A DNA stretch of 48,368 nucleotides from Minisyncoccota bacterium (lineage in GTDB: Bacteria; Patescibacteriota; Minisyncoccia; Phycocordibacterales; UBA9973): positions 1 to 48,368 of the forward strand of contig JAGOOX010000001.1 in the NCBI GenBank assembly GCA_017992305.1. The letters run 5' to 3'. The notes under the pieces are model-generated. The model searched no databases. It had not been told where the DNA came from and saw only the letters and a list, made by a program, of their open reading frames with translations. Below, in pieces: positions 2,937-32,645 of this stretch. Made by a program: the position numbers and the translations under genes. Numbering within the stretch: the first letter of the stretch is position 1; every line of letters begins with the position of its first letter.

Positions 2937-3235
2937 ATGTGACTAATTTTTTAATTTTGTTTTTATATTTTCTATATTTCGTTTGTAAATAATAGTTTAC
3001 ATATAGATAATTTTATTAAAAAAGCTATTTTATATATAAAAAATATAGAAAATTTATTATTTTTTATAAGTTTATGTAAATAATAATTTACGTATATACT
3101 TTTTTAACTTTTCCACACATACTAATGCTAAAAATATTGTTATTACATAACTATTAAACGATAATATATGTATAGCAACGAGATGGTTACCTGGTCGCAT
3201 CACGTTGCGCTTATAAATAATATGCATTAATGTTT

Positions 3236-3367
3236 ATGGCAGCAAAGAAAAGAAAGGCAGCTAAAAAAGCAGTTAAAAAAGTAGCAAAAAAGAAAGTTGC
3301 TAAAAAGACTGTAAAAAAAGCAGCTAAAAAAGCAGCAAAAAAGAAAACAGCTAAAAAGAAGAAATAA
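3236..3367 (+). CDS. 43-aa Lys/Ala-rich histone-H1-like (Hc1/HCT-like) basic protein
   Basis: ATG 3236 to TAA 3365-3367 encodes MAAKKRKAAKKAVKKVAKKKVAKKTVKKAAKKAAKKKTAKKKK. A strong terminator follows directly. Absent from the ORF track (<60 aa). Confidence 0.6.
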   Translation: MAAKKRKAAKKAVKKVAKKKVAKKTVKKAAKKAAKKKTAKKKK

Positions 3368-3390
3368 TATTTCTTAATACGCTTTTTAAG

Positions 3391-3428
3391 AAAACACTCC
3401 GTTCGATAGCCGGAGTGTTTTCTATTTT
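3391..3428 (+). terminator. Rho-independent terminator
   Basis: AAACACTCCG-loop-CGGAGTGTTT followed by TCTATTTT. Confidence 0.8.
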
Positions 3429-3481
3429 ATAAAGACCTGGTTATAGCAAAAAAGGCCTTTATTTGCTATAATGTCTACCTT

Positions 3482-5782
3482 ATGGGATTTTTCAATTTTG
3501 GAGGCGATATACGCGAAAAGACAAAGAAAAAATACACTCCTTTTGCGGAGCTTGTTAATAAGCACGAACCTGAATTGGCCAGCAAAAGTGCTGATGAATT
3601 AAAGGCTATTGTTGCTGATTTAAAAACAAGGGTTAGTGAAAAAGGTTTTGACGAATACGTCGAATCAATGGCTTTTGCGTTGGTGCGCGAGGCTTCAAAG
3701 CGCACGATTGGTCAACGTCATTACGACGAACAAATAATTGGTGGCAAAATCATTCACGAAGGCAACATTGCTGAAATGCGCACGGGTGAGGGTAAAACAT
3801 TGGTTGCAACATTACCTGCATTTTTAAATTCATTGTCAGGCAAGGGTGTGCACATTATTACTGTTAACGATTTCCTTGCACGTCGTGATGCTGGTTGGAT
3901 GGGGCAGGTATTTAATTACCTAGGTGTAAGTGTTTCGGTCATTGGTGGTCAAACTTCATTTATGTATGACCCTAGCGTTGTTGCACCCGAAGATACCAAT
4001 GATGAAGAAGTATTTCGTGTTGTCTATGAAAAACTGCGCCCTTGTACACGCCCCGAGGCTTACCAGGCCGATGTTACCTATGGTACCAATAGCGAATTTG
4101 GTTTTGACTATTTGCGAGACAATTTAATATATAGTTTAGATCAAAAAAACCAACGAGGTCACAACTATGCAATTATTGACGAAATAGACTCTATTTTAAT
4201 TGATGAAGCCCGAACACCATTAATTATTTCACAACCAGCCGAAGATAGTGATGAACTGTATGCAAAATTTGCAGGTATTGCCCGAAATTTGCACGAAACC
4301 GAAGACTACTCAATCGATGAAAAAATGAAGGCCATTCAGCTAACTGATAGTGGTATTTCAAAGACTGAAAATGAAATGGGTGTTGAAAATATTTATACCG
4401 AAAAGGGTATTCGTTATGTGCACCACCTTGAAAATGCAGTACGCGCCAAGGCACTGTACCTAAAAGACCGCGACTATGTTGTTAAAAATGGAGAAGTTAT
4501 AATCGTCGATCCTTTTACTGGCCGTATGCAACCAGGCCGCCGTTGGAGCGATGGATTGCACCAAGCTATTGAAGCCAAAGAGGGTGTTAAAGTCGAGCAA
4601 GAAACTAGAACTGTTGGTTCAATTACATACCAAAATTACTTTAGGTTCTACGATAAACTATCTGGTATGACAGGTACTGCCATGACTTCACGCGAAGAAT
4701 TTTATAAAGTTTACAAAATTGATGTTATACCTGTGCCTACACACCGTGCGATTAAACGTGTCGACCACAATGACCAAATCTTTCAAACTGAAAAAGGTAA
4801 ATTTGCCGCCGTTGCTAAAAAGGTTAAAGAGCTACAAAAAAATGGTCAACCTGTATTGATAGGTACTGTTTCAATTGAAAAAAGCGAATTGTTGTCGGCA
4901 TATTTAAATAGCGAGGGTGTAAAGCATACTGTTTTAAATGCTAAAAACCACGAAAAAGAGGGTGAAATAATTGCTCAAGCCGGCCGACGGGGTAGCGTAA
5001 TGGTTGCCACAAACATGGCAGGTCGCGGTATTGATATTATTTTGGGTGGTATGCCAGTTAATGTAGAAGATCAAGAGGCAATAAAGGCCATGGGTGGTTT
5101 ATACGTTATTGGTACTGAACGCCACGAGGCACGCCGAATTGATAACCAGTTGCGTGGCCGTGCTGGCCGTCAGGGTGACCCGGGCGAAACAGTGTTTTAC
5201 GTATCTCTTGAAGACGACCTAATGCGCATATTTGGTTCAGAGCGTATTAAAACTATGATGGGTCGTTTTGGTATACCCGAAGATCAGCCAATTGAAAACG
5301 GTATGATAACCAAAACTCTTGAAAACGCCCAGGCTAAAATTGAAGGCTTTCATTTTGATGCTCGTAAACACACTTTGGAATACGACGACGTGCTAAGCAC
5401 TCAACGAAACAGTATTTACGCTCGTAGAGCTAAATTGGTTGAAAGCGACAAAGCCCAACTTGATATAGTAATTGATCAAATACGTACAACCTTTACCGAT
5501 GTAGATGCGATTTTTGATGACAAGATAAAGGAGTTTGGCGAGGAGGCTTTTTATAATACCTTCAAGCAAATTTGTTTGTACACTAACGATTTATTATGGA
5601 TCGACCACCTAGAAACTATGGAATACATGCGAAATTCGGTTAATTTGCGTGCCTACGGCCAACGCGAACCACTAGTTGAGTATAAAAAAGAGGGCTTGGA
5701 ACGGTTCAGGGCAATGGAGGTCAACTTTTTGGCCGAATGCTTGAATTTGGTCAAGACTATGCAGGTTCAAAAGGGTCAATAA
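3482..5782 (+). CDS. secA: Preprotein translocase ATPase SecA (766 aa, short form)
   Basis: Motifs MRTGEGKT, DEIDSILIDEARTPLIIS, ATNMAGRGIDI, RIDNQLRGRAGRQGDPG. TGCTATAAT ends at 3472, 9 nt before the ATG. Confidence 0.95.
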   Translation: MGFFNFGGDIREKTKKKYTPFAELVNKHEPELASKSADELKAIVADLKTRVSEKGFDEYVESMAFALVREASKRTIGQRHYDEQIIGGKIIHEGNIAEMRTGEGKTLVATLPAFLNSLSGKGVHIITVNDFLARRDAGWMGQVFNYLGVSVSVIGGQTSFMYDPSVVAPEDTNDEEVFRVVYEKLRPCTRPEAYQADVTYGTNSEFGFDYLRDNLIYSLDQKNQRGHNYAIIDEIDSILIDEARTPLIISQPAEDSDELYAKFAGIARNLHETEDYSIDEKMKAIQLTDSGISKTENEMGVENIYTEKGIRYVHHLENAVRAKALYLKDRDYVVKNGEVIIVDPFTGRMQPGRRWSDGLHQAIEAKEGVKVEQETRTVGSITYQNYFRFYDKLSGMTGTAMTSREEFYKVYKIDVIPVPTHRAIKRVDHNDQIFQTEKGKFAAVAKKVKELQKNGQPVLIGTVSIEKSELLSAYLNSEGVKHTVLNAKNHEKEGEIIAQAGRRGSVMVATNMAGRGIDIILGGMPVNVEDQEAIKAMGGLYVIGTERHEARRIDNQLRGRAGRQGDPGETVFYVSLEDDLMRIFGSERIKTMMGRFGIPEDQPIENGMITKTLENAQAKIEGFHFDARKHTLEYDDVLSTQRNSIYARRAKLVESDKAQLDIVIDQIRTTFTDVDAIFDDKIKEFGEEAFYNTFKQICLYTNDLLWIDHLETMEYMRNSVNLRAYGQREPLVEYKKEGLERFRAMEVNFLAECLNLVKTMQVQKGQ

Positions 5783-12366: not shown

Positions 12367-12906
12367 ATGAAACAGGAAACACCTAAAGCAAGTTTGAAGT
12401 TTTTCATTCCCAGTGGGATTGTTGACTCAAGAGAATTTAAAGAAAAAAAGGGTACCTATCATGGCGGTTGTGGCGAATGGTCACCAACAGGAGCCGGATT
12501 TATTCAGTACTCTCATGAATTTTTACACCTACAGCCATCATCCTTTATTTCAGACGATCTCTTACGGTATTTAAATGAAAATGCAACAAGAGTCGTTTTG
12601 CAAATACCGGCGGTACCAAACGAAAAAGTTATTAAAGGTTTAAGGCCTAAAGATAGCACTATTCAAGCAAACCAGGAGAAAGAATTTTCTATTCAGTTAG
12701 GTAAAAGAAGAATCTCAGGTATGAATTGTCAAATACAAAGTTCCTCGTTTGATCTTATCTTTGAAGGTAAATCTTCAAAAGATGTTTTTGAGACATTTCA
12801 CAGTTTTGCACCAGGCTATTTTCCTCAATCTTCTTTTATTCCAATTACTCATTTTTTGAGTGGAATGAATTTTTTTAGAAGGTTGCGTTTAGTTTTTGGT
12901 AAATAA
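12367..12906 (+). CDS. Hypothetical protein, cassette B (179 aa)
   Basis: Same length as cassette A with the same flanks. C-terminal tail THFLSGMNFFRRLRLVFGK aligns with the cassette A tail (H-x-L-S-x4-F). Confidence 0.6.
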   Translation: MKQETPKASLKFFIPSGIVDSREFKEKKGTYHGGCGEWSPTGAGFIQYSHEFLHLQPSSFISDDLLRYLNENATRVVLQIPAVPNEKVIKGLRPKDSTIQANQEKEFSIQLGKRRISGMNCQIQSSSFDLIFEGKSSKDVFETFHSFAPGYFPQSSFIPITHFLSGMNFFRRLRLVFGK

Positions 12907-23492: not shown

Positions 23493-24233
23493 CTAATTAA
23501 ATGTAATTTCAGCCATTTTTTGCCAAAAATTACCAAATACTTTGGTTGATTTTTTTACTGATTTAAAAATCTGGTCTAACCTTTCAGGAGTATTACCTAC
23601 CAGAGTAATTAAACTTTGGCTGTCATCAGCGTGAGTCTTCTCAAGCTTTTCATGTAGTTTAAAGTAGATCAAGTCCTCACCTTTTAATATGTCATGGCCG
23701 GGTTGGTATAAACTTTTTTCGAACGCCTTACCAATCGTTAAAATGTTGCTAGCAGTATATTCGACTACCAACAATTTACCGAAACCGTACTCAACAGAAG
23801 TTCTATTACTGAAGCTCTGATCCAAACTTTGTATAAGCATCTTAGTTTCGTGTTCGATTTCTTCGACAAAGCCAAGTTTTTTGGGAATTCTTTCAAAAAG
23901 TTTAAAATGAATAATTTTATGATCATTAGTGTCATCAACTTTTTTAATACCCAAGCCCCAATCGTTGCCCAAGATTTTTAATACTTCTTGTGTAAGTTTT
24001 TCAAGCCTAAATAATTCTTTCTCGTCATTTGTCAGTTCTTGTTGTTCAGTCAGCTGGCTTACCAGTCTTGGTAGACTTCTGGCAAAATGTCGTGTGACGG
24101 CATGCCAATTAGTGGCTAATTTTTGTAACTCTGATGAAGGGAAGCTGACAGGGCAGCGAAGTGATTTCTCAAAGCACGGGTTCCAAAAGGCCTGACTTTG
24201 TTGAATGTAGTTAATTATTTCTTCTTTTTCCAT
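23493..24233 (-). CDS. Hypothetical helical protein (246 aa); possibly a haem-oxygenase-like/iron-containing redox enzyme fold
   Basis: Clean ORF with its own bidirectional terminator (23454-23491). IYFKLHEKLEKTHADDS resembles the H-x3-E/D-x2-H motif of that fold. Sits between duplicated gyrA 3' ends. Confidence 0.45.
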   Translation of the reverse strand: MEKEEIINYIQQSQAFWNPCFEKSLRCPVSFPSSELQKLATNWHAVTRHFARSLPRLVSQLTEQQELTNDEKELFRLEKLTQEVLKILGNDWGLGIKKVDDTNDHKIIHFKLFERIPKKLGFVEEIEHETKMLIQSLDQSFSNRTSVEYGFGKLLVVEYTASNILTIGKAFEKSLYQPGHDILKGEDLIYFKLHEKLEKTHADDSQSLITLVGNTPERLDQIFKSVKKSTKVFGNFWQKMAEITFN

Positions 24234-24320
24234 AATTTAAAAGTTCAATTTATACAATCTTGCCGAATTTTAATCAAAATGTCAATATCGGAAGGTCTTG
24301 CCCTCCAATAGGCCATTGAA

Positions 24321-24380
24321 GGCGCTACCGTAATGAAACTTCGCGCAGGGGACACAATCGCTTCGTTTACTTGCCTGTAA
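24321..24380 (+). pseudogene. Displaced relic of the gyrA 3' end (encodes [19 protein letters not shown])
   Basis: 24333-24373 is identical to 23365-23405 (41 nt). Frame and stop are preserved. Followed by its own terminator (24404-24432). Confidence 0.8.
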
Positions 24381-24490
24381 GACTCTATAAATAAAAACCC
24401 ATAAAAAGCCTTAGTTTCTAAGGCTTTTTAACTTTTTATGTCTATTGACAAATAGGGTATAAAGGTGCTATAGTTACAGAGGTAAAAAAT

Positions 24491-24841
24491 ATGGAAAAGA
24501 AAAATATATGGATTAGCGCAATAAGCGCAATGTTCGCTGTACACATAATTGGTTGTACAGGTTTGATGAATGTACATGTTGCGATTTTAGTAATATTACA
24601 CATCATTTTGGGTTTAATTTTTGGCTTTTTGGTCAATTTCTATTATTCAGAAAAGAACCAGCTTTGGTTTTTTATCAGCTCTGTATTATTGATTGTGCTT
24701 ACGGTGGCCGGCTTTAGTGGCGACTCATTGCTATTGAATAAGGTCTTAAAAGACTACGCAGTACTTATTGCGCCAAGTACATTAACCTTTTTTTGTTTTG
24801 TAGGTCACTATATAGACAAAATAAAGTTGCTTAGGGCTTAA
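24491..24841 (+). CDS. Integral membrane protein (4 TM), unknown function
   Basis: Promoter TTGACA...TATAGT and GAGG Shine-Dalgarno upstream; terminator downstream. Confidence 0.6.
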   Translation: MEKKNIWISAISAMFAVHIIGCTGLMNVHVAILVILHIILGLIFGFLVNFYYSEKNQLWFFISSVLLIVLTVAGFSGDSLLLNKVLKDYAVLIAPSTLTFFCFVGHYIDKIKLLRA

Positions 24842-24920: not shown

Positions 24921-25433
24921 ATGATTGATGCACCGCATAAAATTTTGGCACAATTAGTTATTCACGACGGTTCGTGTGTGATTGATTTTGGTGCAGGGTT
25001 TGGGACTTATTCATTACTGCTGTCAGACTTGGTCGGGCAGGGAGGTAGTGTTTTTGCAGTTGATGTACAAAGACATTTGATAGACAAAATTAAACGCGAA
25101 GCTAATGAAACTGGCAAAAAAAATATTTACCCAATGTATGCTGATGTTGAAAAATTGGGTGGTGTACCGCTACAGACTGCGGTGGCAGACTATATTTTTA
25201 TTGTAAATGTTTTAAACGAGGTAGATGATAAGCGAATCGTTTTTGAAGAAGCAAAAAGACTATTAAAAATGGGTGGCCGTTTAGTGGTGGTTGACCACGA
25301 AGACACGCCATTGCCGGGGGTAAAACATTTCAAACTTGTTGATTGCGAACTAGTGGCAAAAAATGCCGGCTTTCATAAAGTTGAAAAAATTGATGCAGGC
25401 GAATTTGCATATGGTATAATATATCAGTCATAA
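24921..25433 (+). CDS. Class I SAM-dependent methyltransferase
   Basis: Motif I VIDFGAGFGTYS, motif II-like VFAVD, GGRLVVVD. Confidence 0.8.
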   Translation: MIDAPHKILAQLVIHDGSCVIDFGAGFGTYSLLLSDLVGQGGSVFAVDVQRHLIDKIKREANETGKKNIYPMYADVEKLGGVPLQTAVADYIFIVNVLNEVDDKRIVFEEAKRLLKMGGRLVVVDHEDTPLPGVKHFKLVDCELVAKNAGFHKVEKIDAGEFAYGIIYQS

Positions 25434-25488: not shown

Positions 25489-26811
25489 ATGGATGAAGTA
25501 AAAAGTAAAAATCGGTTTGGTATAATATTGGCTCTTGTTGGGGCTGGCCTTTTGATTTTAGGGGTTTTGTTTTTCTCGGGCAAGTTGGGTGGTAAAAATT
25601 CAACTAGTACAGCCGAACCCGAGGGCATGGTTGTCGTTTGGGGTACTTTGCCACAGGTTGAATTTAACCAGGCCCTACAGTTTATTATGGCTAGGCAAAG
25701 TAAAATTGGCATATCATATACACAGGTTGCCCCAAACGAACTAAGGCCCAAGTTAATAGAGGCAATTGCTGCTGACATTGCCCCTGACATGGTTGTAACT
25801 GATATTTCAAACTTTTATTCAATCAAGTTTTACACCCAAGAAATACCGTATGCTATATACCCCGAGGCTGGGTTTAAACAAGCTTTTTCAGGTGTAACTC
25901 ATGACCTGCTAACCCAAACGGGTGTTTTGGGTATACCAATTGGTATTGACCCAATTATGATGTTCTTTAACCGCGAAATTTTGGCTCAGTCAGGCTATGC
26001 AACACCACCTCTAACATGGAATGACGTTTATTTAATGGCGCCTGATATTATAAAAATCGAAAAAGGACAATTAATTCGCCAAGAATTATTACCTTTTGGT
26101 CAATATAAAAATGTTAATAACGCTTGGGCTATTATTTCAACATTGTTTGCGCAGTCTCGTGTACCAATTGTTAGAACTGACCCAGTTATTGGTAAATTCG
26201 TTAACCTAGCTAATTCAGACATTGCCGGTATTGAAGGTGCGGGGCAACGAGTTATAGAATTTTATACACAGTTTTCTGACCCTAAAAGTCAATTTTACAC
26301 ATGGAATCGTTCAATGCTTGATTCAAAAAAAGAGTTTTTAGAGGGTAGGTTGGCTTTTTTGCCAAGCTTTGCATCTGAAGCCAAGGACCTGCGCGACCGT
26401 AACCCAAACTTAAACTTTGGTGTTGCCCAAATACCTCAGTTAAATACCGATGCTCAATATCAGGCGACTTTTGCAAATGTATATGTCGCAGGTATGCTAA
26501 AAAAATCAACTAACCCGACCGCTACAAATGTTGTGTTGTTCGAAATGGCGGGCACTGACTTTCAAAAGGCTTTTTCGCAAATACTAATGATGGCGCCAGC
26601 CCTAAGTTCATTGCTAATGTTGCCACCAGAAACGACTTATTTACCAACTGTATATCGTAGTGCCCTAATTGCTAAATCTTGGTACAATGATGATATGGTA
26701 AAAACTGAACAGGCATTTAGTCAAATGGTTGAATCGGTTATTTCGGGTAAGCAAAATGTGCAACAAGCAATTTATCAAGCTGAAAGGATTTTGAACAATA
26801 CAAACTTTTAG
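25489..26811 (+). CDS. Membrane-anchored extracellular solute-binding-protein-like protein (SBP family 1-like), orphan
   Basis: N-terminal TM. VVVWGT...APDMVV...PIGIDPIMMFFNREILAQSGYATPPLTWNDV matches the SBP_bac_1 pattern. No permease or ATPase genes adjacent. Confidence 0.6.
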   Translation: MDEVKSKNRFGIILALVGAGLLILGVLFFSGKLGGKNSTSTAEPEGMVVVWGTLPQVEFNQALQFIMARQSKIGISYTQVAPNELRPKLIEAIAADIAPDMVVTDISNFYSIKFYTQEIPYAIYPEAGFKQAFSGVTHDLLTQTGVLGIPIGIDPIMMFFNREILAQSGYATPPLTWNDVYLMAPDIIKIEKGQLIRQELLPFGQYKNVNNAWAIISTLFAQSRVPIVRTDPVIGKFVNLANSDIAGIEGAGQRVIEFYTQFSDPKSQFYTWNRSMLDSKKEFLEGRLAFLPSFASEAKDLRDRNPNLNFGVAQIPQLNTDAQYQATFANVYVAGMLKKSTNPTATNVVLFEMAGTDFQKAFSQILMMAPALSSLLMLPPETTYLPTVYRSALIAKSWYNDDMVKTEQAFSQMVESVISGKQNVQQAIYQAERILNNTNF

Positions 26812-26845: not shown

Positions 26846-27253
26846 ATGATCAAGCAACAAATTATAAAACTTTATAAAAATACAAATAATAGAATTTTGT
26901 TTTTTATAGCTTTATTAATGACAAGCTTTGTTCAACCAGTTCGCGCTGCTGGACTAGTGCCTTGCGAGGGTGTTGATGATTGTAATTTTGGCAAACTTGT
27001 TGAGCTGTTAAATAATATTGCCAGTTTTGTAATGTTTAGATTGCCAATATTGCTATTGGTAATTGTTTTTGCATGGAACGGGGTAATGCTAATTTATAAA
27101 AGCGACCGCGCGGGTACATTAAAAACTATTAAAAAAAATATGCTAAACGTTTTATGGGGTTATTTACTAGTGGTTGGTGCATATATAATTGTTAAAACAT
27201 TTATTATGCTGATTGCTGGTCAAGAGTTATCATTTAAGGTATTCTTTAATTAA
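26846..27253 (+). CDS. TrbC/VirB2-like 'T4SS pilin' family small membrane protein, paralogue 1
   Basis: Signal peptide ending VRA-AG, GLVPCEGVDDCNF motif, then two hydrophobic helices separated by a charged loop (KSDRAGTLKTIKK). Confidence 0.55.
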   Translation: MIKQQIIKLYKNTNNRILFFIALLMTSFVQPVRAAGLVPCEGVDDCNFGKLVELLNNIASFVMFRLPILLLVIVFAWNGVMLIYKSDRAGTLKTIKKNMLNVLWGYLLVVGAYIIVKTFIMLIAGQELSFKVFFN

Positions 27254-27254
27254 G

Positions 27255-27803
27255 ATGAAAAAAATATTCAATAAAAATTTAAAATTTGTAACTATTTTTA
27301 GCATAGTTTTTTTGGCTTTGTTTGTGTTTGGCGGGCATCGTGTTTTAGCTCAATTTAATACTGCAAACGACCCCTTTTTTGACCCGCTCAATGATACAAA
27401 AAAACCGGTAGACCTAAAACTTACAAACACCAATACTCCACCTACAGGGGGTAACCCTACTGGGGGCGCAGGGGGTAACCCGGCCCAAGGTGGTGCAGGT
27501 GGTCCCGGGACTGAAAAAAGTGGTCTACAAATAACCTTAACAAATCCCTTAAAATCAAATAGTTTAGAGGATTTTATACAAATAGTTTTAGGTGTTATTT
27601 TAAAGTTTTTAATACCTATTTTGGCTATATTATTTATGTACACTGGCTTTAAGTTAATTATAGCCAAAGGCGAGCCGGCGGCTTTGAAGGCAGCAAAGCA
27701 AGACTTTTTAAACCTAGTTATTGGTTCAGTATTAATACTGGGCGCATGGACGTTTGGTAACATTATTATGAACACATTAAAAGAAGTGGGTATTTTAAAT
27801 TAA
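27255..27803 (+). CDS. TrbC/VirB2-like 'T4SS pilin' family protein, paralogue 2, with a Gly/Pro-rich linker
   Basis: Start ATG 27255 (MKKIFNK...), signal peptide ...VLA-Q, PPTGGNPTGGAGGNPAQGGAGGPG linker, then LTNPLKSNSLEDFI...two TM helices with the loop AKGEPAALKAAKQD. Confidence 0.6.
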   Translation: MKKIFNKNLKFVTIFSIVFLALFVFGGHRVLAQFNTANDPFFDPLNDTKKPVDLKLTNTNTPPTGGNPTGGAGGNPAQGGAGGPGTEKSGLQITLTNPLKSNSLEDFIQIVLGVILKFLIPILAILFMYTGFKLIIAKGEPAALKAAKQDFLNLVIGSVLILGAWTFGNIIMNTLKEVGILN

Positions 27804-27829
27804 ATAGTTAAATAACTAATTGCATTAAT

Positions 27830-28216
27830 ATGAAAAATATAACAAATAAAATTTTAACAATTGTTGCCCTGGCGTTTGCGCCTCTTTCGGTTTTTGCTCA
27901 AAATAGAAGCGCTTCGTTGTGTGGGCCTATTAAATATTCACAATCATTGCAAAGCTATTTGTGCGAGGCATACAGGCTAGTTGGTTATTATTTAATACCT
28001 TTATTGACACTGGCTGCACTGGGTTGGTTTATGTGGAACGCAATAATGTTAATTAAAAATGCAAATGTTGAAAAACTTCGCGGTGAATACAAAATTGCCA
28101 TGATGTGGGGCTTGGTAGCACTGTTTGTTATGGTTTCGGTTTGGGGTATTGTGGGCATAATGGGTGGTATTGTTGGTACTAATACATCGGTTATTCCACA
28201 AATTCGTTACAAATAG
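27830..28216 (+). CDS. TrbC/VirB2-like pilin family protein, paralogue 3
   Basis: Signal peptide ...SVFA-Q, two TM helices, loop KNANVEKLRGEYK. Confidence 0.55.
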   Translation: MKNITNKILTIVALAFAPLSVFAQNRSASLCGPIKYSQSLQSYLCEAYRLVGYYLIPLLTLAALGWFMWNAIMLIKNANVEKLRGEYKIAMMWGLVALFVMVSVWGIVGIMGGIVGTNTSVIPQIRYK

Positions 28217-28291
28217 TTGACTTTTTATATTAAATATATGGTACAATATGTTTATAAAAGGTTTTAATTTTTTATTAGTAATTAATTGTTT

Positions 28292-28690
28292 ATGAAAAAA
28301 GTATTATTGATTTTAGTTTCAGCTCTAACCCCATTGGTTGCATCTGCCCAATTTATAAATTTGGGTGGTGCGCCTAATTTTGGTTACGTTAGTAGCGGTG
28401 TTGACCAATTGTTTCGTATTGCGACAACGTATGTTATACCTACGTTAACTCTATTAGCATCAGCCTTCTTTATTTGGGGTGTTATTGGTTACATTAGAGC
28501 TGACACCAAAGAAAACAAAGAAAAGTCAAGACACGCCCTAGTACAAGGCATTATTGCGCTAGCTGTTATTGTGTCAGCTTGGGGTATTGTTAGATTGCTA
28601 CAAAACGTAGCTGGTGTTACGCCTTCGACTACAACAAACACAATTTGTCCACCTGGATACACACCTGTTGGAGCTATTTGTAGGCCTTAA
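28292..28690 (+). CDS. TrbC/VirB2-like pilin family protein, paralogue 4
   Basis: Start ATG 28292 (MKKVLLIL...), signal peptide ...VASA-Q, two TM helices, loop RADTKENKEKSRH, Cys-containing tail. Confidence 0.55.
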   Translation: MKKVLLILVSALTPLVASAQFINLGGAPNFGYVSSGVDQLFRIATTYVIPTLTLLASAFFIWGVIGYIRADTKENKEKSRHALVQGIIALAVIVSAWGIVRLLQNVAGVTPSTTTNTICPPGYTPVGAICRP

Positions 28691-28694
28691 ACAT

Positions 28695-29006
28695 ATGTTT
28701 ACAATTGCCTATGCAGCTGAAACCGGCGAAATAGTTAACGCTGTTTTTACAAAAATTGTTGACCCTGTTGTAATTTTCGGTTTCGTTGTTGCCTTTTTCT
28801 ACTTTATGTGGGGGATAGTGGCATTCATTCGTAATGCCGACAACTCAGCCAAACGCGACATTGGCAAACAGCATATTGGTTGGGGTTTAGTAGGATTGTT
28901 GGTAATGTTTAGTTGTTATACAATATTACAAATTATTGTTAATACACTAGATTTGCAATCACCCCCTAACGGGCCTGATTATCGAACAATCAATCAGCGC
29001 CAGTAA
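28695..29006 (+). CDS. TrbC/VirB2-like pilin family protein, paralogue 5 (short leader)
   Basis: Start ATG 28695, 4 nt after the previous stop. Two TM helices, loop RNADNSAKRDIGKQ. Confidence 0.5.
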   Translation: MFTIAYAAETGEIVNAVFTKIVDPVVIFGFVVAFFYFMWGIVAFIRNADNSAKRDIGKQHIGWGLVGLLVMFSCYTILQIIVNTLDLQSPPNGPDYRTINQRQ

Positions 29007-29010
29007 TAAT

Positions 29011-29042
29011 AAAACCCCGACTTAATTAATAGTCGGGGTTTT
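29011..29042. terminator. Bidirectional rho-independent terminator
   Basis: AAAACCCCGACT-taattaat-AGTCGGGGTTTT between convergent genes. Confidence 0.8.
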
Positions 29043-29047
29043 GATTT

Positions 29048-29677
29048 CTAGAAAAATCTTTTTAGAATCGGCCTACTGTAACCCTTTGTGTGTGTAAACA
29101 CAATTCTTTCGCCAGCTTTGAATTGTTCACCCGGTGTCAATAATAAAGGTATTATCTCGACATTCCCCAATGAGTCAGTTCTTTGTACTTGTTTCAGCCT
29201 AAGACCGTCTTCACCGGTACCAGAAACAATGACTTCTTCATTTGGGCCCAAGCCATCAATTCTATACTGCTGATAAGGTTCAAGGTGGGTAATAAGTCGA
29301 CCACCATTAAATTCAGTATAAGTAGTGTCGGATCGTGTTTGCACAACGTCTCTACTTGCAGTTACTGGATCTCTGTTTAGGTCACTACCTAATAGTTTTT
29401 TAGGTACGAAAATAAGAGAAGGTAAAAGTGCTATTACAAGCAATATTTTACCTCGCAAACTTCTACCCATTTGAAACGCCAGTATTGCTATAAGTAAGGT
29501 AGTGATCGTGAACCAGAAATACCATGTCCATGCCCAAACTTCCCAAACTGAAGGAAAGCTCAGCTTTAGGGCCATTACGGATAAAACAATAATCGCTAGA
29601 CTGGATGTAATTTTAAACTTCCAGTTAGATCCTAAGATATTTTGAATGAAACTCGCTATTAATATAAATGTTCTCAT
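29048..29677 (-). CDS. Membrane protein (3-4 TM) with a beta-rich C-terminal domain; possible NfeD-like partner of the upstream SPFH gene
   Basis: Start moved to ATG 29677 (MRTFILIAS...). Trp-rich TM region, soluble C-terminal ~110 aa. Confidence 0.5.
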   Translation of the reverse strand: MRTFILIASFIQNILGSNWKFKITSSLAIIVLSVMALKLSFPSVWEVWAWTWYFWFTITTLLIAILAFQMGRSLRGKILLVIALLPSLIFVPKKLLGSDLNRDPVTASRDVVQTRSDTTYTEFNGGRLITHLEPYQQYRIDGLGPNEEVIVSGTGEDGLRLKQVQRTDSLGNVEIIPLLLTPGEQFKAGERIVFTHTKGYSRPILKRFF

Positions 29678-29781
29678 GATTTTTATTTCTAACTTAATTA
29701 TAGCATATACTACGAAAAAAGTCAAATAAAAAAGCCCTATTTGATTAGTATCAAATAGGGCTACTCTGGGGGATTTTAGTT

Positions 29782-31299
29782 TTACGGTCTGTTTTTCATT
29801 GCTTCGGCAACCTCTTTTAGGGCTTGAACAATTAATACTGTTGATACGGAATTGTCTGCAGGTCCTGAATTACCAGGCGCTGCTACATTATTATTATTAT
29901 CTTTAATAATAACAGTTCCTTTAGCGCCAGCATACTGCTTGGCTACCTCAAGAGCATATTCTGCATCAATAATAATTTGTGCATCAACGCCATTTGCCTT
30001 GGCCGTCTTTAAGAGATTACTTAAGGCTTTTACTTCAACTACATTCATTTCTTTGGCGCCTTTGGCTTTAGCTAAGAGGTCCATTTTGGTGAGCATTGCC
30101 GCGGCCTTGTTCAAAAGAGTGTTCTTGCCAGCCTCTTCTTTACCCTTAACTTTTATGTTGTAGGCTTCACCTTCAGATACTCTTTTACTAGTATAAAGGT
30201 CTTTATCAGCGTCTATTGCCTCCTTTTCTTTTTTGGCTTTAGCAATTGAAATATTGATTTGAGCTTCATGCATATCTTTAGGTGCATGCAGGGCTGAAAC
30301 TGATGAAGTACGAATATTTAAACCAAGTTCCTGGCTTTCATTAAGCTTGCTTACTTTTTTTAATAATTCATAAGACATTGCGCCAACGCGTAATAATGCT
30401 GCCAATTTACCATAAGGGAACTTTTTAAAAATTTCGTTTAGTACAGCCTTTGTATTAGCAACCATTTGACTGATTATGTACTCGCGTCTTTTTTCTTCGG
30501 TTTGACCCTCAACGTTTTTCCAAAACAGTTCAATGTTGTGCTGCCATTTAGTATCATCTTGAATGTCAATATCTATTACCAAGTTAACTTCGGGGAACAG
30601 GGTTGTTTGAGTATGCATAACAGCATCCTTTTCCTCTTGTTCCCATACTTTTTTTGCTATTTCAATCTCGGTATTGTTTGGCTGGGCATCCTCGTACGCA
30701 CCTCTAGTTATACCAGCTAAGACTTCTCTTTTTCTAGCAATAGCAACAGAATACATTTCAATAAAATCTTTTTTGTAGGATTTTGATTGGTCAGCGGTCG
30801 ATGTTCCGATTGCAAAATCAGGATTTGCACCACCGGTTTTGTTAAATAAAATCTCTATGTTTTTATTACTTCGAGATTCTACTGTAAAGATGGGGTTATG
30901 AATATATGGACCACCTCTTCTAAAGTGGCCAACTATTTTACCCTCAACTGTTAGTATTCCTACGTGGTCAACTGGAACTTCCCGTATCTCTTGTTTGAAT
31001 AACGTAAGGAACAAAGCAATTTTTGATGTCGTATAATAAATGTTTTTATAATAGTCATCGATAAACACAAACGGTATGAAACCGTCGTCAGATTGATTTA
31101 TTGTTTGATTCTTCTGCACTGGATTGTAAATAACTCCCTGGCTTGCCAGTATCATCCAAATTAGAATCGGGATGAAAATTGCAAGAGTGCAGCCAACAAT
31201 TACGAGCTCTGTTTTTTCTATGAATGTTAGGGAACAGATCACCCCAGCTATGATTACTATCAATACGATAACAAGCATGTTTTTCGTTTTTATCCTCAT
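29782..31299 (-). CDS. SPFH/band-7 (flotillin-like) membrane protein, 505 aa
   Basis: Two N-terminal TM helices. VPVDHVGILTVEGKIVGHFRRGGPYIHNPIF matches the start of the SPFH domain. LGLNIRTSSVSALHAPKDMHEAQ...EGEA plus an Ala/Lys-rich coiled-coil tail. Confidence 0.55.
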   Translation of the reverse strand: MRIKTKNMLVIVLIVIIAGVICSLTFIEKTELVIVGCTLAIFIPILIWMILASQGVIYNPVQKNQTINQSDDGFIPFVFIDDYYKNIYYTTSKIALFLTLFKQEIREVPVDHVGILTVEGKIVGHFRRGGPYIHNPIFTVESRSNKNIEILFNKTGGANPDFAIGTSTADQSKSYKKDFIEMYSVAIARKREVLAGITRGAYEDAQPNNTEIEIAKKVWEQEEKDAVMHTQTTLFPEVNLVIDIDIQDDTKWQHNIELFWKNVEGQTEEKRREYIISQMVANTKAVLNEIFKKFPYGKLAALLRVGAMSYELLKKVSKLNESQELGLNIRTSSVSALHAPKDMHEAQINISIAKAKKEKEAIDADKDLYTSKRVSEGEAYNIKVKGKEEAGKNTLLNKAAAMLTKMDLLAKAKGAKEMNVVEVKALSNLLKTAKANGVDAQIIIDAEYALEVAKQYAGAKGTVIIKDNNNNVAAPGNSGPADNSVSTVLIVQALKEVAEAMKNRP

Positions 31300-31325
31300 T
31301 TTTAATGTTCTATATTTCAGTCTAC

Positions 31326-31354
31326 ATTATAGCAAACTTTATATAAAAAGTCAA
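31326..31354 (-). promoter_or_regulatory. Promoter (minus strand) TTGACT-17 nt-TATAAT for the SPFH gene, directly after a terminator hairpin
   Basis: Plus-strand agtcaa 31349-31354 and attata 31326-31331. Hairpin aaaaaccctt..aagggattttt lies just upstream on the minus strand. Confidence 0.65.
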
Positions 31355-31436
31355 GTTAAAAATCCCTTATAAACAAGGGTTTTTTATACAAAAACAGCCC
31401 CTTTTTTAAGGGGCTGTAGTATGCGTAAAGAACTTT

Positions 31437-32645
31437 TTAGCTAGATGTGCTTGAACTGTTGTTGCTAGTCTGCTGCATGCGTCTTCTGATGTCAGCGGCT
31501 CTTTCGTTGGAGTTCTGAATCAGTTGTACATGCTCTATGGCTCTTTCAAAAACGAATGAATCGCTTTTTGAGAAGAACTTTAACAATACAGGTATCGCCT
31601 CAATGAAGAAAAACATAAAGAACACTGCCCAAATGATTGGGTTTCTGCCAGCGATGTCGTTTAACACGTCTAACATAAATGCCAAACCATTTACCGGCCT
31701 TGCTAATACTTTTTCAATCAGGACTTGTTCGGCTGTGTCAATATCGGCCAGGTCAGCTTTTGCTTTTACTCGGGCTTTTTCAAGCTCTTTGGTGTAAACA
31801 TCAACTGATTGAGCTGCAACAGATTCTGTTTTGGCAGCATTTCTTTCAGCTATGAGGTTCTCCTTCAGTGCTTCGTAGCGCGAAATTGTTTCGCGAATAC
31901 CTTTTGCAACAGATCCATCACCAGCTCGGCCAGATACTCCACCTGGGCCTTTGATCTCGTAGGGGAGTTTTGAACTCCAAAACTTGATTGAGTCATCGGT
32001 TGCAGTGATCTTTTCCTCGTAGCTTTGAGCTAGAGTAGCCAGGTCAGCTTGCATTTTTCCAAGGGCGTCCTCAGCCTTTTTTACAGTGTTTACTACTGAG
32101 TCTTTTTGATGTTTGAGTGAATCAGATATGGCAGCGGTTTCGCTGTCCTGACGTATCTTAATTTCAGCCGTTATTTCCGGCTTAAACATAATCACCCTGA
32201 TCATCTCACTGTTAAAATAACAGATGAAGAAAATCATTACAAAACGAAGTAATAGCCAACCAAAGCCGGCACTGGAATTCTTTTCGATGTGTTCATGATC
32301 GAAAGTTCCTTCCTTCATGGCTTTGGCTACTTTTCGAACTGAGATCACATCCATCTGCTGTAGAATTGATCGTTCAAGCATTAGCATAATCATGAACCAA
32401 AATGGTCCCACGAGGTAACCCCATGGACCCATTGGTATGAACCAGGCTACTGATGCAAGCACTGCTGATACTAATGCAACCACGAATACTACAATACCTG
32501 CAGTAATACGTTTTTGCTTGTCATCGGGTAAGGTTTTTTTGAAAGCGGCAAGGGTGCTTCCACCACATGCTGCAAAAAACAGGCTGATAGGGCTCGAGTG
32601 ATGAGCCTCTAAAGAGTTGAGGTATTGGTTATCTGTGTTGTTCAT
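31437..32645 (-). CDS. DUF4407-like membrane protein (TM pairs flanking a long coiled coil)
   Basis: N-terminal FFAACGGSTLAAFKKTLPDDKQKRITAGIVVF...ERSILQQMD pattern, central coiled coil, C-terminal TM (IIWAVFFMFFFIEAIPVLLKF). Confidence 0.55.
   Translation of the reverse strand: MNNTDNQYLNSLEAHHSSPISLFFAACGGSTLAAFKKTLPDDKQKRITAGIVVFVVALVSAVLASVAWFIPMGPWGYLVGPFWFMIMLMLERSILQQMDVISVRKVAKAMKEGTFDHEHIEKNSSAGFGWLLLRFVMIFFICYFNSEMIRVIMFKPEITAEIKIRQDSETAAISDSLKHQKDSVVNTVKKAEDALGKMQADLATLAQSYEEKITATDDSIKFWSSKLPYEIKGPGGVSGRAGDGSVAKGIRETISRYEALKENLIAERNAAKTESVAAQSVDVYTKELEKARVKAKADLADIDTAEQVLIEKVLARPVNGLAFMLDVLNDIAGRNPIIWAVFFMFFFIEAIPVLLKFFSKSDSFVFERAIEHVQLIQNSNERAADIRRRMQQTSNNSSSTSS

Follow-up and report, generated by a model that had tools for sequence, protein, structure and literature searches.

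Organization of the pilin-like gene array

The window analyzed here is a complete 48-kb contig (C6; 48,368 nt) of the Minisyncoccota bacterium assembly GCA_017992305.1, which comprises 609 kb in 52 contigs and is 87.6% complete. According to the list of open reading frames (ORFs), five co-directional genes for proteins of 103 to 182 aa are located between positions 26846 and 29006. By profile matching, these genes were assigned to the Patescibacteria pilin family of type IV secretion systems (T4SS). They make up the 3′ portion of a seven-gene operon, in which the gene of an S-adenosylmethionine (SAM)-dependent methyltransferase is followed by that of a MalE-type binding protein and by the pilin-like genes p1 to p5. 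The features of the locus are:

24921..25433, plus strand: class I SAM-dependent methyltransferase, 170 aa, first operon gene (Pfam Methyltransf_31, 59.6 bits)
25489..26811, plus strand: MalE-type (SBP_bac_8) binding protein, 440 aa (Pfam SBP_bac_8, E 6e-13)
26846..27253, plus strand: pilin-like p1 (g1), 135 aa (TrbC PF04956, 24.7 bits; PF18895, E 3.7e-3)
27255..27803, plus strand: pilin-like p2 (g2), 182 aa from the ATG (PF18895, 25.2-27.4 bits; TrbC, 22.7 bits)
27830..28216, plus strand: pilin-like p3 (g3), 128 aa (PF18895, 22.9-24.1 bits; lineage hidden Markov model (HMM), E 5e-35)
28217..28291, plus strand: p3-p4 spacer with a promoter-like site (TTGACT at 28217-28222, 19-nt spacer, TGgTACAAT at 28239-28247)
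28292..28690, plus strand: pilin-like p4 (g4), 132 aa (PF18895, 30.1-30.8 bits)
28695..29006, plus strand: pilin-like p5 (g5), 103 aa (PF18895, 26.4-26.9 bits)
29011..29042, no strand assigned: G+C-rich palindromic hairpin, probable two-way terminator (sequence and terminator scan)

The initial annotation of this DNA had listed five consecutive small genes with gaps of 1 to 75 nt, and both the ORFs and their spacing could be confirmed. The junctions p1-p2, p2-p3, p3-p4 and p4-p5 measure 1, 26, 75 and 4 nt, respectively. The p3-p4 distance would be 69 nt if p4 started with the TTG at 28286, two codons upstream of the ATG at 28292; the ATG was preferred, since the proteins of relatives begin with MKK. 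This junction is the only wide one in the array, and its length ranges between 69 and 126 nt in 12 of 13 five-gene arrays. An extended −10-like motif TGnTA(T/C)AAT is present in most of the p3-p4 spacers compared. The promoter-like site of the window was missing from the output of the consensus scan because its spacer has a length of 19 nt. Judged by these motifs, the p3-p4 spacer may contain an internal promoter that could serve p4 and p5.

The hairpin downstream of p5 (12 pairs, 6 of them G-C, in the terminator scan) separates p5 from a convergent minus-strand gene for a 225-aa protein. It probably marks the 3′ end of the operon and acts as a terminator in both directions.

Assignment to the T4SS pilin family

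All five proteins matched the Pfam model T4SS_pilin (PF18895) with E-values between 5e-7 and 4e-3. The gathering cut-offs are 26.6 bits for PF18895, 27.9 bits for PF04956 (TrbC) and 40 bits for the NCBIfam model NF045849. The PF18895 cut-off was passed by p4 and, in a six-frame search, by p2 (27.4 bits; 25.2 bits for the protein from the ATG start), and p5 was found at the cut-off. Based on whole-protein E-values and one matched stretch per protein, the matches extend over positions 5-71 of the 71 model positions for p2 (1.7e-5), 13-70 for p3 (8.9e-5), 20-71 for p4 (5.1e-7) and 8-70 for p5 (7.2e-6). The p1 protein covers positions 7-98 of the 98 in TrbC PF04956 (E 2.7e-5), and p1 orthologues have precomputed PF04956 matches. 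NF045849, a pilin-like family of Mycoplasma integrative and conjugative elements (ICE), was matched by p2 (31.8 bits, E 8e-8), p3 (25.8 bits), p4 (23.9 bits) and p5 (19.9 bits), with E-values of 8e-8 to 4e-4; p1 did not match this model. Among 74 aligned homologues from a public protein collection, PF18895 matches were identified in 64 and PF04956 matches at E ≤ 1e-3 in 16, the best at 6.7e-8.

In addition, 31 genomes of the same order were scanned with PF18895, 20 loci were extracted and a local HMM was built. Matches were found in 30 of the 31 genomes, mostly as tandem runs of four to nine. The lineage HMM recovered all five window genes at E 1e-25 to 5e-35 (p1, 2e-28; p3, 5e-35) and, over all ORFs of the genome, matched only these five and one 744-aa fusion protein. 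The genes p1 and p3 are connected to the PF18895 family indirectly, by the lineage HMM, the shared tree and the PF18895 matches of their relatives. Weak PF18895 matches on contigs C13 and C26 were dropped, as they were not confirmed by the lineage HMM.

As judged from these profiles, the five genes are TrbC/VirB2-related members of the T4SS_pilin family of Patescibacteria. This agrees with the initial annotation, whose assignment is supported by the Pfam matches, by the NCBIfam matches to the Mycoplasma ICE pilin-like family and by the hairpin model of p1 described below. A holin or bacteriocin reading was dismissed, as neither a phage nor an immunity context is present and conservation of the operon extends across the class. 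The small size of the proteins and Pfam scores near or under the cut-offs might also point to chance or mis-called hydrophobic ORFs in AT-rich DNA. The probability of this explanation is negligible, since it is refuted by conservation: the same order and motifs recur in about 100 related loci, and the lineage HMM finds the genes at the low E-values given above. Moreover, the genes are tightly spaced and share a terminator, and homologues are highly expressed in cultured Paceibacteria, where the expression of T4SS pilins is among the highest of all genes with a signal peptide (PMC10936435).

Predicted architecture of the pilin-like proteins

Hydropathy analysis of p1 to p4 revealed a basic N-terminal region and a hydrophobic signal, followed by two transmembrane helices. 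The predicted signal ends among these four proteins are V-R-A, V-L-A, V-F-A and A-S-A (VRA|AG in p1 and ASA|QF in p4). The loop joining the helices has a length of 9 to 13 residues and contains Lys/Arg, as determined from hydropathy and loop charge. The architecture of signal and two helices that had been described as common to the array therefore holds for p1 to p4, whereas p5 has no Sec-type signal peptide. It consists of two helices and a polar tail and carries, in place of a Sec-type signal, only the 7-residue leader MFTIAYA|AE. The leader motif x-A-(Y/H)-A|A is kept across the family, and the upstream region offers too little room for a longer N-terminus. The p5 leader (28695-28720; M-F-x-I-A-Y-A|A) looks like the part of a signal peptide around the cleavage site, with the hydrophobic core missing.

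In p1, the N-terminal segment after the signal carries an exposed Cys pair (GLVPCEG..DCNF), and the C-terminal SFKVFFN is conserved. The Gly/Pro-rich insertion reported earlier for one gene was located in p2, where a low-complexity Gly/Pro/Asn/Thr linker and the motif L-T-N-P-L precede the hairpin. The p3 protein has an exposed Cys pair after the signal (LCGP...YLCE) and a conserved C-terminal IPQIR motif. The p4 protein contains a PNFGY motif and a Cys-containing C-terminal tail (ICPPGYTPVGAICRP) with the loop CPPGY...C, which is kept within the genus and the family. Two Cys-containing tails had been proposed; however, only p4 has one, as the Cys pairs of p1 and p3 are N-terminal. The Cys pairs are restricted to segments predicted to be outside, the exception being a single Cys in the second helix of p5.

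The AlphaFold2 (AF2) model of p1, with a mean confidence (pLDDT, predicted local distance difference test) of 73.6, comprises a signal helix, then a loop of 20 residues, then the hairpin of helices 48-84 and 89-124.

Position-specific orthologues in the array

In nearly all family-level relatives, the best BLAST match of each window gene was found at the same array position, and order-preserved orthologues of the five genes exist in dozens of species. A maximum-likelihood tree was calculated from 70 proteins of 14 five-gene arrays (14 genomes). Each of p1 (99/97), p2 (99/97) and p5 (99/95) formed one clade, and these clades are common to several families of the order. The hallmarks of p1 are C-x-G...C-(N/T)-F and the C-terminal S-F-x-V-F-F-N. 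For p2 they are a linker, which ranges from about 20 to about 240 residues across orthologues, followed by L-x-N-P-L. The p3 orthologues, found at position 3 in family-level relatives, share the Cys pair and I-P-Q-(I/V)-(R/K), and p4 is characterized by P-(N/D)-F-G-Y and the C-terminal C-P-P-G-Y...C.

Identity within the array is low, with 20-28% to p1 in the alignment and 22-37% in BLAST pairs with E below 1e-5, in line with the high divergence noted previously. The methyltransferase, the binding protein and the five pilins are about 35% identical to those of a genome labelled as the same genus (G003), the VirB4 of which is 78% identical. For comparison, GyrA is about 68% identical across related loci. 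The whole module evolves much faster than the VirB4 motor.

These rates have a possible counterpart in a variation repertoire, in which five interchangeable major pilins would be used singly or mixed for host range or for escape from phages or host defence. Such a reading has been suggested for Patescibacteria in the literature (PMC12102498), and the same survey ascribes to the VirB2 paralogues of Bartonella and Anaplasma a presumed role in immune evasion via antigenic variation or interaction with varied host surfaces (PMC12102498). It would be in keeping with the within-array identity of only 20-37%, with the contrast between about 35% for the module and 78% for VirB4 in the same-genus genome, and with the finding that variability is highest in the exposed N- and C-terminal portions and in the p2 linker. 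We nevertheless regard it as quite improbable for this array. The genes p1, p2 and p5 form separate clades through several families, with a fixed order and motifs of their own, and are not recent duplicates. The copy number is stable, five being the mode (41 of 63 loci). Repeats, recombination cassettes or silent copies were not found, and the domain occurs genome-wide only in the five proteins and the one fusion protein.

Overall, the sequence comparison favors five ancient, distinct and non-redundant subunits over a recently amplified repertoire of variants. The initial annotation had left the choice between alternative and heteropolymeric subunits; the latter fit better, because the five copies represent old position-specific orthologue lines, and alternative subunits are the poorer fit.

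Conservation of the seven-gene operon

The solute-binding neighbor upstream of the array had been taken for an orphan. It turned out to be a conserved operon gene, located immediately 5′ of the array in 18 of 20 loci from relatives. A profile scan of species-representative genomes with the binding protein identified at least 590 relatives. Array genes were counted in the 63 loci for which 2.5 kb or more of sequence was available downstream. In 59 of these, at least four consecutive pilin-domain genes directly follow the binding-protein gene, and in 41 there are exactly five. Relatives bearing the operon include Candidatus Paceibacterota, Nomurabacteria and Kaiserbacteria. Of 301 genomes sampled from the class, 273 encode the binding protein, mostly in one copy; the operon is nearly ubiquitous among Paceibacteria. 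No fusion of the binding protein to a pilin was seen among 99 binding-protein ORFs in 100 loci, and none of the 150 class-wide matches listed had an over-long frame. A partnership of such a binding protein with T4SS pilins was not found described in the literature searched.

The methyltransferase gene was co-directional with and immediately 5′ of the binding-protein gene in all 97 loci compared; the median distance is 6 nt, and overlaps of 4 or 8 nt are frequent. The protein has neither a signal peptide nor a transmembrane segment. In NCBIfam it matched only generic ArsM/UbiE-like models, far under their cut-offs. Further upstream, gyrA is conserved as well, and the methyltransferase gene of relatives follows gyrA at a median gap of 83 nt. 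The genes 3′ of p5 are not conserved among relatives.

The MalE-type binding protein

The profile of the binding protein matched solved sugar-binding proteins, the best being 4r9f (E 1.4e-24). The AF2 model has a pLDDT of 89.4, and a Foldseek search with it returned sucrose- and maltodextrin-binding proteins with E-values of about 1e-21 and TM scores of 0.6 to 0.8. Residues 8-35 form a transmembrane anchor, and a lipobox Cys is lacking. These results identify a genuine two-lobe protein of the MalE type that is anchored in the membrane. Despite an overall identity of about 32%, 24 columns of the alignment are invariant, several of them Trp, Tyr, Asn and Asp.

A permease of the MalFG type (BPD_transp_1, PF00528) was not identified in the genome or in the complete relatives G017 and G019; among other relatives, G012 has only a weak match and G010 one permease. 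Compared with the binding proteins of MalE-type ABC sugar importers (SBP_bac_1/8; CpMnBP1 4r9f, Atu4361 4qsd), the two-lobe fold is the same. The differences are the uncleaved transmembrane anchor, the genome in which no MalFG-type permease was found, and the conserved partners, which are a methyltransferase and five pilin-like proteins.

Secretion machinery elsewhere in the genome

VirB4, VirD4 and VirB6 were not found in the window, nor was any T4SS ATPase. The earlier statement that no secretion machinery is nearby is therefore valid for the window, but not for the genome, since PrgI/VirB3, VirB4 and a pilin-domain fusion are encoded on another contig (C28). There, PrgI/VirB3 (1893-2306; 41.9 bits) is followed by a gene for a 212-aa protein and by VirB4 (3007-5073), which was detected by the domains P-loop_TraG (85 bits) and AAA_10 (45 bits); the VirB4 model PF03135 had no match in the genome. 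For a TrsD-like assignment of the 212-aa protein, BLASTP against the VirB4 N-terminus gave nothing better than an E-value of 0.14. The virB4 gene is followed by an opposite-strand type IV pilus-type pilin, by two secreted proteins and, a few kb further on, by dnaA/dnaN, with the dnaA start at 12654. This arrangement agrees with the origin-proximal T4SS reported for Patescibacteria (PMC12102498).

The 744-aa fusion protein recovered by the lineage HMM is encoded at C28:7025-9259; no other pilin-domain gene of this genome lies next to virB4. The pilin domain spans residues 395-487 (E 1.6e-8). This secreted protein has the pilin-type hairpin in its middle part, between an N-terminal outer domain of about 390 aa and a C-terminal region of about 250 aa. 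The latter contains a motif resembling lytic transglycosylases (QRESRG) that was not confirmed by Pfam. Directly after virB4, on the minus strand, lies a prepilin-like gene (C28:5076-5651; motif FTLLELLVV). Two different pilin systems therefore stand side by side at the origin-proximal locus. Two candidates for further T4SS components were rejected. The VirB6/TrbL candidate (PF04610, E 0.24) is an FtsX-like ORF, and the VirD4 candidate on C34, an AAA_10 match, is FtsK; PF02534 gave no match.

The distance between array and motor raises the question of a hetero-oligomeric membrane device independent of VirB4. Its ten transmembrane helices would work together with the MalE-type protein as an uptake channel or as a sensor of host ligands. 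The ligand would then be host-derived and sugar-like, and the term pilin would be only a trace of ancestry. Within this order, the binding protein always accompanies the array and virB4 never does, the binding protein has no MalFG-type permease, its 24 invariant columns are compatible with a conserved ligand site, and no pilus has been shown in these bacteria. We consider this explanation unlikely, since the proteins are homologous to pilins of conjugative systems, the VirB4 locus encodes a sixth protein with a pilin domain, and the operon encodes neither an ATPase nor another energy source. Furthermore, the arrays of Saccharimonadia lie inside the T4SS cluster, without such a binding protein (PMC10633639; PMC12857230).

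Comparison with known pilin systems

Patescibacteria represent a large share of the uncultured bacteria, and in the one species that has been tested genetically, the type IV secretion genes and the pilin array are essential for life on the host. A tandem pilin array was found to be essential in the T4SS locus of Southlakia epibionticum ML1 (PMC10633639, Wang et al. 2023), a series counted as six VirB2-like pilins in a recent review (PMC12857230). A survey counted 441 arrays, each with 2-11 genes, across 383 assemblies; identity within an array averaged 25% and reached at most 54%, and Microgenomatia and Saccharimonadia were named as array-rich classes (PMC12102498, Quinonero-Coronel et al. 2025). 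Arrays were defined there as at least two tandem pilin genes with an i-Evalue below 0.001 and more than 50% profile coverage for PF04956 or PF18895 (PMC12102498). All five window genes fall under this definition, their identity is equally low, and a VirB4 of the Patescibacteria type, recognized by its domain scores, is encoded together with PrgI/VirB3. The array therefore belongs to a known kind. The survey found pilin genes within 20 coding sequences of virB4 in 1135 of 1948 assemblies (PMC12102498), a proximity that the window array does not show. The words solute, substrate-binding and SBP do not occur in the survey text (PMC12102498).

Like the VirB2-like arrays of Patescibacteria, among them the 'Sec-secreted array' of Nanosynbacter lyticus TM7x, the array consists of tandem small genes that match PF18895/PF04956 and whose products are structurally alike and about 25% identical. 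The background is also the same, with a monoderm host, an MPF-FATA-like VirB4, PrgI/VirB3 near dnaA and no relaxase context. In contrast to the arrays described, it lies outside the T4SS cluster, detached from virB4, consistently follows the genes for a methyltransferase and a MalE-type binding protein, and comprises five position-specific orthologue lines in fixed order.

With the TrbC/VirB2/TraA pilins of diderms (PF04956), the proteins share small size, a signal peptide and a two-helix hairpin with a short basic loop. Here, however, the host is monoderm, five paralogues replace the one pilin, the scores are under the curated cut-off, and VirB5, VirB6 or outer-membrane core genes were not found. 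The place of an adjacent processing gene of the TraF (cyclase) or TraX (acetylase) type is taken by the SAM methyltransferase. The Mbov_0395/MMCAP2_0565 family (NF045849) likewise consists of hairpin proteins of a monoderm MPF-FATA-type transfer system, but in Mycoplasma it is a single gene on a mobile element, whereas here it is a chromosomal five-gene operon. Bartonella and Anaplasma phagocytophilum also have several divergent virB2 copies in tandem. The copies found here differ in being ancient, ordered and individually conserved, which points to a division of labor.

Proposed function of the module

The reading we favor, with moderate confidence, is that p1 to p5 are five specialized VirB2-type subunits, inserted by Sec (p5 without a classical signal) and joined by the unlinked VirB3/VirB4 into a single envelope structure, to which the binding protein would belong as a dedicated partner. 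The analysis shows the homology, the predicted topology, the order and orthology of the genes, the conservation of the operon and the occurrence of VirB3/VirB4 at another site of the genome; we infer signal cleavage, polymerization, a need for VirB4 and the parts played by the binding protein and the methyltransferase.

In this model, p1 to p4 would enter the membrane via Sec and be cut after a small-x-Ala site, and p5 would insert without a classical signal. Each protein would adopt a helical hairpin with both ends outside and the short Lys/Arg loop inside. The exposed ends would be specific for the array position: p1, p3 and p4 carry loops with a Cys pair, and p2 has a linker that is variable and of low complexity. 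The five proteins would work jointly as non-redundant major and minor components of one envelope structure. Most likely, this would be a pilus-like fibre or conduit for whose assembly the VirB3/VirB4 machine encoded on C28 near dnaA is responsible. The binding protein would serve the pilin set as its dedicated partner and not as the receptor of an ABC importer.

Several observations weigh against this model. Two of the pilin-like proteins, p1 (17.7 bits) and p3 (22.9-24.1 bits), score under the PF18895 cut-off, and all five are under the cut-offs of PF04956 and NF045849 (PF04956: p1, 24.7 bits; p2, 22.7 bits; p5, E 0.21). A Foldseek search of the PDB with the p1 model returned nothing below E 3, a short all-helix query being a poor test, and the pilin sequence profile gave only spurious PDB matches to G protein-coupled receptors and designed membrane proteins, with no VirB2 or TraA among them. 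The tree does not separate p3 cleanly from p4; both are interspersed within a superclade of p3, p4 and p5 (100/99). As gyrA is conserved upstream of the operon too, the conserved order may in part be frozen synteny and not functional coupling. The array is not linked to virB4: the two lie on different contigs in this genome and in the relatives G003, G010 and G017, and the distance between them is 233 kb in the closed genome G012 and about 246 kb in G019. No VirB6 or dedicated coupling protein was found in the assembly, the 87.6% completeness of which leaves their absence unproven. Finally, filaments have not been seen in any Patescibacterium, and pili are treated as a possibility only (PMC12857230).

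More tentatively, and with some doubt, the MalE-type protein and the five pilins could be considered as one sugar-recognizing surface machine, with the methyltransferase possibly modifying them. The binding protein would then sit on or feed the VirB2-type fibre or conduit. If true, this would link the recognition of ligands or host glycans to the type IV secretion apparatus on which these obligate symbionts depend.

The window array itself is an ordinary example of the published kind; the new element is the conserved and apparently unpublished operon partnership. The Paceibacteria version adds subunits that are old and not interchangeable, transcribed apart from the motor and tied to a soluble-domain protein with a well-understood fold. 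The binding protein can be expressed and screened for ligands, which would be a practical way to learn what the apparatus as a whole does.

Neighboring genes in the window

Downstream of the terminator hairpin, three minus-strand membrane protein genes (29048-32645; 225 aa, 505 aa and DUF4407) were considered as part of the module. They adjoin the array in 0 to 2 of 100 loci and were excluded because they are not syntenic in relatives. Upstream, a minus-strand gene for a 246-aa iron-oxidase-like protein and a gene for a 116-aa membrane protein are located between gyrA and the methyltransferase gene (23493-24841). Both are nearly absent from 100 related loci, with 0 and 1 matches, respectively. 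The remainder of the window is occupied by housekeeping genes, including those for SMC, SecA, DnaE, GyrA, IF-2, ClpB and HisRS.

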